DNA from: Escherichia coli
GTDB taxonomy: Bacteria > Pseudomonadota > Gammaproteobacteria > Enterobacterales > Enterobacteriaceae
Direction: 5' to 3' (one strand)
Length of the DNA: 64,000 bases
NCBI RefSeq assembly: GCF_013122565.1
Contig: NZ_CP053258.1
The notes beneath the pieces were generated by a model. The model did no database searches, was not told the origin of the DNA, and saw only the letters and a list, made by a program, of their open reading frames with translations. Shown piece by piece: positions 1,978-13,817 of this stretch (positions within the stretch are counted from its first letter, which is position 1; every line of letters begins with the position of its first letter). A program made the translations under genes and the position numbers.

Positions 1978-2697
1978 TTATTCCCATGCATGGGGCGCAA
2001 AAAGATAGCCTTTGTTACGCACAGTTTTAATGCGATAAGGTTCTGCGGCGTTATCGAGCAGTTTTTTTCTTAACCGCGAAATAGCCACGTCCACGCTACG
2101 ATCCAGTCCGTCATAACTGACGCCGCGTAAATTTTTCAGCAATGCATCGCGGTCCATGATTTGCCCAGCATGGGTAGCTAATTCCCACAATAATTCGAAA
2201 TCAGCTGTCGAGAGCGAGATTTCAGTGTTAGCCAGGGTGACTACGCGGTTGATGGGATCGATGGTCAACGTGCCGAAATGCAGGGCTTTGTAGGGAGTCA
2301 GAGACGTTTCCTGAAGACCTTTGGTCAGTGTGGCTTGCTCATTCTGACGCAAATGCAAACGTAAACGCGCTAGCAAAACAGCAGGGGGCGTCGTTTTGAG
2401 AATATAGTCGCAGGCACCCATTTCCAGTGCCAGGATGTGGTTCATATCGCTATCGAGAGAGGTTAGAAGAACAATCGGTCCAGACCACTTTGCGCGTAAA
2501 TCACGACAAATGGTCATGCCGTCCTTGCCTGGTAGCATGATGTCGAGTAACACCAAATCCGGATTTTCTCGCAAAATGGTTTCTTCGGCCTGGTCGCCGC
2601 GCGGCTCTACGGTAACCTGCATATCATGTTTTGCCAGGTACGCGGCAATCAGTGAACCGACTTCCGCATCATCTTCCACAAATACGATAGTGTTCAT
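1978..2697 (-). CDS. rstA: OmpR-family response regulator RstA
   Basis: ORF track 1978..2757; likely true start MNTIVFVEDD (ATG at 2695-2697) giving 239 aa; receiver domain plus winged-helix domain. Confidence 0.9.
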   Translation of the reverse strand: MNTIVFVEDDAEVGSLIAAYLAKHDMQVTVEPRGDQAEETILRENPDLVLLDIMLPGKDGMTICRDLRAKWSGPIVLLTSLDSDMNHILALEMGACDYILKTTPPAVLLARLRLHLRQNEQATLTKGLQETSLTPYKALHFGTLTIDPINRVVTLANTEISLSTADFELLWELATHAGQIMDRDALLKNLRGVSYDGLDRSVDVAISRLRKKLLDNAAEPYRIKTVRNKGYLFAPHAWE

Positions 2698-2825
2698 AAC
2701 ATTCACGGTAGATATAAAAACGTCACAATACACCGCGCTGTTTTTACTTACTATCAATCGTTTCTAAACAAGTTTTCATCAGGTATTCTACTGATGACTT
2801 GTTATGGAAGTGTTAAGGTAAAAAG

Positions 2826-3161
2826 ATGGGGCTGGTAATCAAAGCCGCGCTCGGTGCGCTGGTAGTGCTGTTGATTGGTGTTTTAGCAAAAACGAAAAAT
2901 TATTATATCGCCGGGCTGATTCCACTTTTCCCGACCTTTGCGCTTATCGCGCATTATATTGTTGCCAGCGAACGCGGCATTGAAGCCTTACGCGCAACCA
3001 TCATTTTTAGTATGTGGTCGATTATTCCCTATTTTGTTTACCTGGTGTCGCTGTGGTATTTCACCGGAATGATGCGCTTGCCCGCCGCTTTTGTTGGTTC
3101 TGTTGCGTGTTGGGGGATAAGCGCATGGGTGTTGATTATATGCTGGATAAAGCTGCATTAA
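2826..3161 (+). CDS. ydgC: GlpM-family small inner membrane protein
   Basis: 111 aa hydrophobic ORF; position between rstA and folM as in K-12. Confidence 0.8.
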   Translation: MGLVIKAALGALVVLLIGVLAKTKNYYIAGLIPLFPTFALIAHYIVASERGIEALRATIIFSMWSIIPYFVYLVSLWYFTGMMRLPAAFVGSVACWGISAWVLIICWIKLH

Positions 3162-3880
3162 CGCAGATGACGACCGCCATCAAGTGGGAAACTGCGTCCG
3201 GTGACAAAGCAACTGGTAAGTAAGTAATCGACCAGGTCGATCACTTCTTTCTCGCCAGGCGCGGTTTTCATCAGTGATTTATTCAGCGCCTGTTGTCGAT
3301 ATTCGGCATCATCATGTTCATTAAACAGGATCAGCGATGGCGCAATAGAATTCACTTTCACTTCCGGTGCCAGCTTGCGGGCAAACGAGCGGGTCATATT
3401 ATCCAGTGCCGCTTTGCTTGCAGCATACGCAATATGTTTGTCGCTACCGCGCTCCACCACATAATCGGTAAAGTGAATGATATCGCTGGCGGCGTGTCCG
3501 TGCCCACGCAGTAATCTTTCCAGCGCATGGTTGAGCAGGTATGGGGTATTAACGTGGATCTGCATCATGCAAGCCAGTACGTCGGCCAGTGGCGCACCCG
3601 GTTTTTCCGCCATCCACGCACTGGCGTTATGCAAAATAGCACGCAGACCATGGGTGCTTTTTAGTACTTCGTCGGCAAACGCCATCACACCGTCGTTGGT
3701 CGAAAAATCAGCCTGAATACACTGCGCACCTGCATTAATCAGTCCATCAATGGCTGGATAGTGCGTCCGATAGCTGACAATCACCGGTTGCTTTTGATTA
3801 ATGAAATGCCATGCGAGGGCGAGGCCGATGCGACGACCACCGCCAGTAATTAATATTGGCAAGGGCTGGGCTTTACCCAT
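3158..3880 (-). CDS. folM: Dihydromonapterin/dihydrofolate reductase FolM (SDR family)
   Basis: 240 aa ORF with N-terminal ITGGGRRIG Rossmann motif and YAASKAAL SDR active site. Confidence 0.85.
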   Translation of the reverse strand: MGKAQPLPILITGGGRRIGLALAWHFINQKQPVIVSYRTHYPAIDGLINAGAQCIQADFSTNDGVMAFADEVLKSTHGLRAILHNASAWMAEKPGAPLADVLACMMQIHVNTPYLLNHALERLLRGHGHAASDIIHFTDYVVERGSDKHIAYAASKAALDNMTRSFARKLAPEVKVNSIAPSLILFNEHDDAEYRQQALNKSLMKTAPGEKEVIDLVDYLLTSCFVTGRSFPLDGGRHLR

Positions 3881-3916
3881 CGTTATCTCCTTTGCTATCC
3901 AACGATGGGATGAACG

Positions 3917-5299
3917 TTATCCCACCAGCATCCAGGTCGCCGGAACTGAGGCAATTAACAGCATGCCAATCAGCACCATTTCCTGACGGTTCAGTACATT
4001 ATCATGGGTATGCGTTTTACGCGCGTACAGGAAAACCAGCAGCCCCGGTGCATACAGAACAACGGATAACAGCAAGTGCATTGGACCAGAGGCGTACAAT
4101 AACCATAAGCCATAAATGCAGGCACCGACACCTACCGCTTTATGCAGTGGACGGGTTGCGATTTTCAGCAAGAACGCGCCGACCAGGAAATAGGGCACCA
4201 GAATCATTTCTGAGGCGATGGTCAGCAACGTGTTGTAATCGGAACCGGTCAGCCAGATGAGTACCAGACAAATTTGCACGCAGATGTTAGTCAACCACAG
4301 TGAGGCGGATGGCGCAGCTTGTGCGTTCTGGCGCGCAAAAATGCGCGGGAATGCTTTATGAGTGGCGGCCAGGAACGGAACTTCTGCCGCCATGATGGTC
4401 CAGCTTAAGTACGCGCCGCAAACGGAAACGATCAAACCGGCAGCGATGATGATTTCGCCCCACGGTCCCATCATTTCCACCATCAGACCGGCCATTGACG
4501 GGTTACGAATTTCAGCCAGTTCAGGACGTGCCACCACACCCAGCGAAAGCAGCGTTACCAGCAAGTAAACGCCCAGAGCGGAGAGAACCGCCAGCAGTGT
4601 CGCTTTGCCAACATCACGTTTATTACGCGCACGCGCAGAAACAACCACGGCACCTTCCACACCAATGAAAACCCACAGGGTGATCAGCATGGTGTTTTTC
4701 ACCTGTTCCCACACGGGGACGCCAAGTGCAAGTCCGGTGAAGTCGAGCTTGAAGGTATCCAGTTTGAACATCATCATAGCCAGCACAACAAACAGACCCA
4801 GCGGCAACAATTTTGCCAGTGTCGCCACCAGGTTAATGCTGGCAGCGGTTTGCACCCCGCGCAGGATCAAAAAGTGAACAATCCACAATAAAGCCGATGC
4901 ACCGACGATCGATTGCCAGGTATTACCATCGCCAAACAGGCGCAATTCCGGCGTGTCCGTAAAAAAGCTTAACGCGGAAAAAACGATTACCAGATAGGAG
5001 ACGTTGGCGATGACTGCGCACAGCCAGTATCCCCATGCGGAACAAAAGCCGATTAGCTCGCCAAACCCTTCGCGGGCATAGGTAAAGATACCGCCGTCAA
5101 GTTCGGGACGAATGCGCGTGAGGATCAGCATGGCAAAGGCCAGTAATAAAATACCAGCGCCAGTGATACCCCAGCCGATGAGCAGTGCTGCCGGGCTGGC
5201 AACTGCCGCCATATTTTGCGGCAGACTGAAAACACCCGCGCCCAGCATTGAGCTTAATACCAGCGCGGTGAGTGCGCTCAGTCCCAGTTTCTTTTCCAT
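3917..5299 (-). CDS. ydgI: Putative arginine/ornithine antiporter (ArcD-like, APC family)
   Basis: 460 aa polytopic membrane ORF; recalled match to E. coli YdgI. Confidence 0.85.
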   Translation of the reverse strand: MEKKLGLSALTALVLSSMLGAGVFSLPQNMAAVASPAALLIGWGITGAGILLLAFAMLILTRIRPELDGGIFTYAREGFGELIGFCSAWGYWLCAVIANVSYLVIVFSALSFFTDTPELRLFGDGNTWQSIVGASALLWIVHFLILRGVQTAASINLVATLAKLLPLGLFVVLAMMMFKLDTFKLDFTGLALGVPVWEQVKNTMLITLWVFIGVEGAVVVSARARNKRDVGKATLLAVLSALGVYLLVTLLSLGVVARPELAEIRNPSMAGLMVEMMGPWGEIIIAAGLIVSVCGAYLSWTIMAAEVPFLAATHKAFPRIFARQNAQAAPSASLWLTNICVQICLVLIWLTGSDYNTLLTIASEMILVPYFLVGAFLLKIATRPLHKAVGVGACIYGLWLLYASGPMHLLLSVVLYAPGLLVFLYARKTHTHDNVLNRQEMVLIGMLLIASVPATWMLVG

Positions 5300-11988: not shown

Positions 11989-12810
11989 TTATTTTTGCGA
12001 CAGTTGATCCAGCCTGTCGCGAAAACCGGTAACAGAAATGGCCCGGTTATCGGCGCGCCAGCGATCTTTCGCGGCAGGAGCCGAACTTTGCACCCCAATT
12101 AATTGCCAGCCGTCATCGGTATGCAACATCAGAGGCGAACCGCTGTCACCCGGCAAGGTATCGCACTGATGTGACATCACCGACGTTTGCGCCCAGCCAG
12201 TCACTTCACAGTTTTGATGACTGTACAACGTATCGAGATGATCTTCAGGGTATCCCGCCTGAGTTACTTTACGGCCAGCCGATTTTAATGCGGCGGTAAG
12301 CGCGGCTTTATCTCCCTCAAATAACGGCAACGGTGTAATGCCAGAAGGGGGATTACGTAGCACAATCAATCCGAAGTCCCACGGTGCAGCTGCGGGAGGT
12401 ACAATCCAACCATCCCCATCTGCTTTTAACCGCTTTCCCAGTGTCGGATCAACGCGGCCTTCTATGTCGTGGATCTCATAGCGCCAAAGACCTTTATTTG
12501 ACACAAAACGCAGCGCTACCGCCTTATCCGCTTTACCCTTTGGAGGTGTCAATAAACAGTGTCCTGCCGTTAATGCCAGATTGGGTGCAATCAGCGTCGC
12601 CGTACATAAATTGCCGCTGGCCGTTTCCAGTTGCCCAACCGCATCCCACGGTGATTGGGTCGTGTCATTCACTGGCACACGATCATCATGACCAAAAAAC
12701 AGGGTGCTGATCTCATCGTTTGCCGATTTGGCAACGTCTGGTTTATCTGCAAACACAAAAGCAGACGTCAAACTAATTGCACCCAACACTACAGCAATGG
12801 TTGTACGCAT
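11989..12810 (-). CDS. ydgD: Secreted trypsin-like serine peptidase (S1 family)
   Basis: 273 aa ORF with signal peptide, TAGHC histidine motif and GDSGSP serine motif. Confidence 0.8.
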
Positions 12811-12909: not shown

Positions 12910-12993
12910 TCAGGAAAGATAAAAACGGGCGGCAATCAGTGCGCATAAAATAAGGATGATAAGAATGAACTCAAAGCGATAACGGCCCACCAT
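12910..12993 (-). CDS. ydgU: Small hydrophobic protein YdgU (27 aa)
   Basis: Manual translation MVGRYRFEFILIILILCALIAARFYLS; too short for ORF track. Confidence 0.6.
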   Translation of the reverse strand: MVGRYRFEFILIILILCALIAARFYLS

Positions 12994-13085
12994 ACTACCC
13001 TCCGCTAAAGGCGGTGCTAAACGTTACCCGCTTAGCACCGTAATTTTCAGGCGCGAGGGGGCGCGCCAGCATTACTGTTGAAAAC

Positions 13086-13394
13086 TTACGCTGCGGGTTG
13101 TGCAGCAGGTTTTGCCGGTTGCTGATGGCTGTGTTTCCCGGCGTGTTTCTTCGCTGCCTGCGCTTTTTGTTCAGGGGCTTTCTGTTCAGCTTTCGTATTT
13201 TTATGATGCTTTTTAGCCGCCTGCGCTTTCTGGGCAGGTGCTGCTTTATGCTGTTTTTTATGATGTGTAGTTTTCGCCGGCGCTGCTTTGGTGGTCGTCG
13301 CAGTCGGAGCAGGTGTGGTCGCAGTCTCTGCAGCAAAGGCGGCAGAAGACAGACCCATAGCAGCGGCAACAACCAGAGCTAATACTTTTTTCAT
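13086..13394 (-). CDS. asr: Acid shock protein Asr
   Basis: ORF track 13086..13421; canonical start [14 protein letters not shown] (signal peptide); lysine/alanine/histidine-rich repetitive periplasmic protein. Confidence 0.85.
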
Positions 13395-13817
13395 TGTCAT
13401 ACCCTCAATTTGTTTTTTCATTTAACCCCACTGCGGGGCCGTTGAAATAACTATATCCCTGGGAATGGTAGACTTCCGTGAGTGGTTGGTTTCAGCGTGT
13501 AACGATATGTACAAACGCTGAATAAATTACAGCATTGATAATAACGTATTGTGACTTAAGGAAAATTTAGCTACCAATAATAGTAGTCTTGATCGGGTTA
13601 ACTATTTTACTACTTACAAAGCGGTAGAATAACTGCGCATCAGTAATAAATGACACACAGCAAAATGAATCCGTTTATTTGGGTACTTATAATCTTGATG
13701 ACGCTAGATGCGCTGCGGGAATTGGCTGGCGCTTCGTCTATTTTAGGATGGCTATTAACGTTGGTTTGAGCAGGCAATAAGTCCGGATGGGTATTTACCG
13801 CAGTCCGGACTTATTTT

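Follow-up and report, generated by a model that had tools for sequence, protein, structure and literature searches.

At low pH, the bacterial envelope is protected by small periplasmic proteins such as HdeA, HdeB and Spy/CpxP, and the literature assigns a similar function to the Asr protein of Escherichia coli. In a passage that refers to Seputiene 2003 and Ren 2022, Asr is portrayed as an intrinsically disordered periplasmic chaperone/aggregase, which supports outer-membrane integrity at low pH, and the same study reports that no gene is induced more strongly at pH 4.4 than asr (about 1000-fold), which accounts for ~2% of all Ribo-seq reads (PMC10746267). The likeness to HdeA/HdeB and Spy/CpxP is functional only, as these proteins have no sequence relationship to Asr, which is of low complexity and which the literature describes as disordered, not folded. 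The match to Spy stays far below the threshold (11 bits against a cut-off of 174; E = 0.37), and a sequence search of the PDB returned no Asr relative with a solved structure. Asr is reportedly processed in two steps, which Seputiene et al. (2003) are said to have described as removal of the signal peptide followed by cleavage near residue 58/59.

The genes asr and samT (ydgU) form one operon that is activated by RstB-RstA, a two-component system on which both products act back in turn (PMC13425233). Asr exerts positive feedback, and SamT inhibits the RstB sensor kinase in a negative feedback (PMC13425233, 2026). CpxP likewise feeds back on CpxAR. Canonical Shine-Dalgarno sequences have been noted for both asr and samT (PMC13425233), and acid induction of asr is documented for strain K-12 (PMC10746267, PMC13425233).

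Genes of biased composition are also known to harbour long “shadow” open reading frames (ORFs), which owe their lack of stops purely to codon content and lead both ORF finders and gene callers astray. The asr gene is likewise covered by such frames, yet the cause is unusually clean compared to other cases: the mature part contains no codon with T in the second position, and stops are therefore certain to be absent from the +1 frame. Here, we analyse the asr locus in a stretch of 64,000 nucleotides (64 kb) of E. coli DNA, in the following termed the window. Our reading, to which we assign a probability of roughly 0.95, is that asr of the window is intact and ordinary for E. coli and heads the asr-samT operon, which is induced by acid and RstBA, and that both ORFs overlapping the gene are non-coding by-products of its composition. 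As the gene has been described before, along with its repeats and its regulation, the biological significance of the locus is small; the rest is known or trivially derived.

The asr gene and its operon

The window comes from the E. coli chromosome, and positions 13086..13394 hold asr (Table 1). Its product matches the NCBIfam equivalog NF033636 (“acid resistance repetitive basic protein Asr”) over residues 1-99 with 99.2 bits (cut-off 50, E = 2.6e-28) and the Pfam family PF06392 with 46.3 bits (cut-off 24.9). Of 5426 complete E. coli genomes, 5422 contain the 309-nt coding sequence (CDS), invariably annotated as asr, and the gene order ynfM - asr - samT/ydgU - ydgD - mdtIJ is the same in the window, in K-12 and in strain 120899. 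The samT gene has an equivalent annotated position in K-12; it codes for only 27 amino acids and is missing from the ORF lists used here, which start at 30 amino acids. The minus-strand ORF in the list (13086..13421) reaches an upstream ATG at position 13421, and the RefSeq start lies at position 13394. No evidence contradicting the identification as asr was found in this analysis.

Over all 309 nt the allele in the window is 100% identical to asr of strain 120899 (WP_001342195.1), and its DNA is 99.0% identical to K-12 asr (b1597). K-12 Asr has the same length (309 nt, 102 amino acids), signal peptide, two repeat units and C-terminal tail as the protein in the window, and the two differ in two amino acids, T25A and K86G, the latter of which is located in the second repeat unit. 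Codon 86 (13137..13139, minus strand) reads GGG (Gly) here and AAG (Lys) in K-12, a two-base change that yields KKHAGKH instead of KKHAKKH. Strain 120899 has the identical T25A/K86G allele.

Table 1. Positions in the window of asr, its neighbours and the sequence features assigned to the locus.
Feature	Position	Strand	Details
asr CDS	13086..13394	-	309 nt, 102 amino acids plus stop; RefSeq start 13394
Shine-Dalgarno GAGGG	13402..13406	-	7 nt upstream of the asr ATG (13394); read from the sequence
RstA-box match, predicted	13498..13511	-	exact to consensus TACATNTNGTTACA (TACATATCGTTACA); 104-117 nt upstream of the asr ATG
Sec-type signal peptide, putative	13332..13394	-	residues 1-21, then AE; basic, hydrophobic and A-x-A regions in the sequence
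Short 21-nt (7-amino-acid) direct repeat, TATTPAP/TATTTKA	13294..13333	-	19 nt, 79% identity, spacing 21; offset-7 protein diagonal
A6 run	13254..13259	-	CDS 136-141; one A lost gives the 141-amino-acid chimera P0026 (alignment)
Repeat unit 1	13185..13247	-	residues 50-70; core QKAQAAKKH at 13206..13232
A5 run	13210..13214	-	CDS 181-185; one A lost gives the 141-amino-acid chimera P0004 (alignment)
Repeat unit 2	13122..13184	-	residues 71-91; core QKAQAAKKH at 13143..13169; carries K86G relative to K-12
Spurious +1 sense ORF	12995..13372	-	125 amino acids; ORF list; crosses the asr-samT spacer, ends with TAG at 12995-12997
Spurious antisense ORF	13098..13382	+	94 amino acids; codon-aligned frame; ORF list
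Two stem-loops in the asr-samT spacer	13013..13067	-	GGCGCG-CCCCCT-CGCGCC, then UGAAAAUU; 12-bp hairpin GGUGCUAAGCGG/CGUUUAGCACC
samT (ydgU)	12910..12993	-	27-amino-acid membrane peptide, MVGRYRFEFILIILILCALIAARFYLS; second gene of the operon, 93 nt downstream of asr
ydgD	11989..12810	-	ORF list

The 102 residues of Asr include 31 A, 18 K, 10 T, 9 Q, 8 P and 8 H. Judging from the A-x-A pattern, the signal peptide would be cleaved off at the site indicated in Table 1, and the mature part holds 16 K, 8 H and 3 E and is devoid of V, L, I, M, F, R and D. With 16 lysines, 8 histidines, 3 glutamates and neither arginine nor aspartate, the mature protein would thus carry a calculated net charge of about +13, which would rise to ~+21 once the histidines are protonated. 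The product is predicted to be a secreted, very basic, low-complexity periplasmic protein. The 2022 paper by Ren et al. reportedly has “net-charge regulation” in its title, and a charge rise upon histidine protonation fits this term.

Allowing for up to one mismatch, the RstA-box consensus, which reportedly goes back to Ogasawara et al. (2007), matches the 64-kb window at a single site, the predicted box upstream of asr (0.27 matches expected). The exact match to this consensus is consistent with an activation of asr-samT by RstB-RstA. A scan for consensus sigma-70 promoters yielded no site, which in our own reading is unsurprising for an activator-dependent promoter, and terminator-like matches are weak. 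The asr-samT spacer is structured: the RNA folded from positions 12985-13100 (minus strand) has a free energy of -47.2 kcal/mol (z = -2.47), and its two stem-loops may serve as a partial terminator or as a processing/stability element of the operon.

Rfam scans, carried out locally with E values up to 1 and across the whole window at gathering thresholds, identified no RNA family at asr. Elsewhere in the window and unrelated to asr, the Hfq-binding sRNA STnc560 gives a full-length match to RF01407 (41352..41565, plus strand; 281.9 bits, gathering score 55). A small ORF divergent from asr (13650..13769, plus strand; MTHSKMNPFIWVLIILMTLDALRELAGASSILGWLLTLV) is the counterpart of a gene that carries the annotation “KPN_01571 family protein” in K-12 and other strains. 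In strain 120899 it appears as a shorter “hypothetical protein”, and genomes do not agree in the start codon assigned to it.

Internal repeat of Asr and its copy number

The first-pass annotation had identified the gene as asr, encoding imperfect repeats rich in K, A, Q and H, and had proposed a self dot-plot as a check. The NF033636 match bears out the identification, and the dot-plot of the protein displays internal repeat structure in the form of a clear diagonal at offset 21, along which residues 50-70 match residues 71-91. The exact 9-mer QKAQAAKKH occurs twice, 21 residues apart, and weaker diagonals at offsets 7 and 14 run through the T/P/A-rich N-terminal part.

In a sequence of such low complexity, the K/A/Q/H-rich units might resemble each other by chance, without any true internal duplication, and some of the scores would agree with this notion. 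The DNA self-match statistics of asr are not above codon shuffles (170/1000 and 389/2000), and neither is the BLOSUM62 self-diagonal score of the protein above composition-preserving shuffles (233/2000), a score that is uninformative here as low complexity inflates the shuffled values. Instead, exact runs and identity windows were evaluated. Among 5000 residue shuffles of mature Asr, an exact repeat of at least 9 residues arose once and 12 identities in a window of 17 never arose, and therefore the repeat exceeds compositional chance. Moreover, the KAQAAKKH core recurs in one to three copies at a spacing of 15-25 residues in many genera, and a recent duplication of the equivalent unit is visible at the DNA level in Pectobacterium. 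Chance similarity is thus a very improbable explanation; the repeat is real and more than low complexity.

The orthologues illustrate how this unit is distributed. Clean full-length Asr proteins comprise about 73 to 120 amino acids, and copies of the KAQA[AT]K core, spaced by 15-25 residues, number one in Yersinia, two in E. coli, E. fergusonii and Serratia and three in Pectobacterium and the database protein P0032. The proteins of E. fergusonii (P0020), Serratia (P0050/P0058), Yersinia (P0088) and Pectobacterium (P0033) all share a signal peptide, an A/T/P-rich N-terminal part and the KAQAAKKH core, and their mature part is basic and free of hydrophobic residues, like in E. coli. The surroundings of the gene are similar in part: downstream of asr, E. 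fergusonii and Yersinia have a gene for a trypsin-like peptidase, and in Pectobacterium aroidearum the genes for a response regulator and a histidine kinase directly precede asr.

At the DNA level, Tandem Repeats Finder detected a tandem repeat in P. aroidearum asr (period 54, 2.7 copies, 89% matches, score 240), no array in E. fergusonii asr and, at a score of at least 30, no array inside E. coli asr. Hence, Pectobacterium has kept a recent DNA tandem repeat that is absent from E. coli, and unit duplication therefore occurs in the Asr family. In E. coli asr, a search for DNA repeats returned a single 36-nt pair of 78% identity at a spacing of 63 nt, and the two 63-nt units agree at 34 of 63 positions (54%), with a longest shared run of 11 nt. 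The E. coli repeat pair is old and diverged. We envisage that Asr was built by an ancient internal duplication of a ~21-residue unit with the conserved family core (E/A)QKAQAAKKH, and that the two E. coli units have since diverged too far in DNA to behave as a tandem repeat any longer; the gene length in E. coli is fixed at 309 nt.

The repeats had also been considered prone to copy-number variation, and a comparison of repeat number across strains had been suggested. In its strongest form, this view would make asr a hypervariable contingency locus, where slipped-strand mispairing shifts the copy number between E. coli strains. The word “repetitive” in the family name, the one to three copies across genera, the genuine 54-nt tandem repeat in Pectobacterium and an E. 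coli-like database variant (P0034) that lacks exactly the seven residues PAPTATT, one 7-amino-acid unit, might all be taken to favour it. However, Tandem Repeats Finder detects no array in the E. coli gene, its units are only 54% identical and share at most 11 nt in a run, and its length does not vary in the sample: the CDS spans 309 nt in 29 of 29 evenly spaced E. coli records, and the 486-nt asr locus spans 486 nt in a single piece in 59 of 59. No length variant was thus encountered among the 88 evenly sampled records, a sample size compatible with rare large indel alleles in up to roughly 1-2% of genomes. In 5417 of 5422 genomes, at least 80% of the locus is covered in one place, and a protein search revealed no E. 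coli-like cluster that gains or loses a 21-residue unit in frame. The weakest asr match, which is also the only disrupted locus inspected, is due to an IS66 insertion and not to a repeat change. A contingency locus of this kind is accordingly just as improbable as chance similarity, and the expectation of strain-level variation is not borne out by the E. coli records sampled. Repeat number in Asr is instead a character that differs between genera (one to three copies), rather than a strain-level polymorphism in the sampled E. coli.

The disrupted locus belongs to E. coli strain ZYB39 (NZ_CP098234.1, locus 2501..4352), where asr is interrupted near its 3' end by the IS66-family element ISCro1. 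In RefSeq, the locus nevertheless retains an “asr” CDS, which is 360 nt long and extends into the insertion sequence.

Reading frames overlapping asr

Two long ORFs overlap asr, one in the +1 sense frame and one in the codon-aligned antisense frame, and both start at TTG. Their coordinates had been given correctly in the first-pass annotation and agree exactly with the ORF list. They had been regarded as artefacts produced by the repeats on both strands; the ORFs indeed are artefacts, but their cause is the composition of the gene and not the repeat.

The 81 codons of the mature part include none with T at position 2, since mature Asr lacks V, L, I, M and F. The codons of the +1 frame begin with the second-position base of the asr codons and, as this base is never T, the stops TAA, TAG and TGA cannot occur. 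A stop in the codon-aligned antisense frame requires TTA, CTA or TCA on the sense strand; none of these codons is present in the mature part, and therefore this frame is stop-free as well. Consistently, 10000 of 10000 shuffles of the codon order of the mature part leave both frames without any stop, and the other three frames average 3.7-4.7 stops. The few hydrophobic codons lie in the signal-peptide segment, as does every alternative-frame stop delimiting the spurious ORFs on this side; in every codon shuffle the antisense frame contains exactly one stop, opposite the single TTA (Leu) codon of the signal peptide. The bias is reflected in the T content of the sense strand, which amounts to 7.7% in the mature part versus 24% in the neighbouring ydgD. 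The open frames are a deterministic product of the amino-acid composition alone, and the repeat plays no part.

One or both of these ORFs might still be real genes for arginine-rich or hydrophobic peptides, as is hinted at by their length of 125 and 94 amino acids, by an antisense frame that stays open across the four genera compared (E. coli, E. fergusonii, Pectobacterium and Yersinia), and by a +1 ORF that is intact in six of six E. coli alleles. Yet, an openness forced in 10000 of 10000 shuffles is uninformative on coding, and the antisense frame is open in the four genera just as the codon content predicts. The +1 frame, on the other hand, is interrupted by internal stops in E. fergusonii, Pectobacterium and Yersinia, where the orthologue has Val or a similar residue. 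Searches of Pfam and NCBIfam returned no family match for either ORF, both of which would have to start at TTG, and in the six RefSeq E. coli records inspected asr is the only annotation across the CDS. The ten polymorphic sites among six E. coli alleles are mostly non-synonymous in the alternative frames (synonymous to non-synonymous, 2:8 for the +1 ORF and 4:6 for the antisense ORF, compared to 6:4 for asr), a trend that points the expected way, with counts too small to separate the frames statistically. An exact look-up in a collection of 15 billion proteins retrieved neither ORF, which is a weak argument, since Asr of the window, its 111-residue extended form and K-12 Asr are absent from the collection too. 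Genuine overlapping genes are, in sum, even less credible than the alternatives considered for the repeat, and we conclude that both ORFs are spurious. They can be dismissed by a deterministic argument, namely no T in the second position and no TTA, CTA or TCA, without any recourse to the repeats.

The +1 ORF terminates one base before the samT ATG (12993-12991), just after the samT ribosome-binding site GGAGGG. This arrangement is most likely a coincidence, since conservation of the +1 frame does not extend beyond E. coli. The farthest-fetched reading, that a fraction of ribosomes might slip by +1 on the lysine A-runs of the massively translated asr mRNA, read through the structured spacer and terminate at the samT start, which could couple the translation of asr and samT or generate a minor arginine-rich Asr variant, has only the geometry in its favour, and a frame that is closed in E. 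fergusonii, Pectobacterium and Yersinia against it.

Frameshifted Asr proteins in databases

The canonical 102-residue Asr, whether in the form of the window allele or of K-12, is absent from the 15-billion-protein collection, which does contain many frameshifted or truncated versions. For this reason, the E. coli forms obtained by homology search are all aberrant; a low-complexity filter may be the reason for the missing canonical protein.

Approximately 20 of the 120 protein clusters retrieved with Asr consist of proteins of 122-141 amino acids, which begin like Asr and continue in the +1 frame of the 125-residue ORF, and several of these chimeras are named Asr by their source. By aligning the encoding loci, the deletion of a single A was demonstrated for two of them (P0026 and P0004; Table 1); the chimeras of 141 amino acids belong to the assemblies GCA_000190815.1 and GCA_052882035.1. 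The loss of one base in the A5 or A6 runs of lysine codons, either by real mutation or by sequencing error, leads gene callers into the open +1 frame and gives rise to the chimeras of 122-141 amino acids. The open +1 frame thereby accounts for many database proteins of this size as single-base frameshift chimeras, a consequence at the level of annotation and the only one found.
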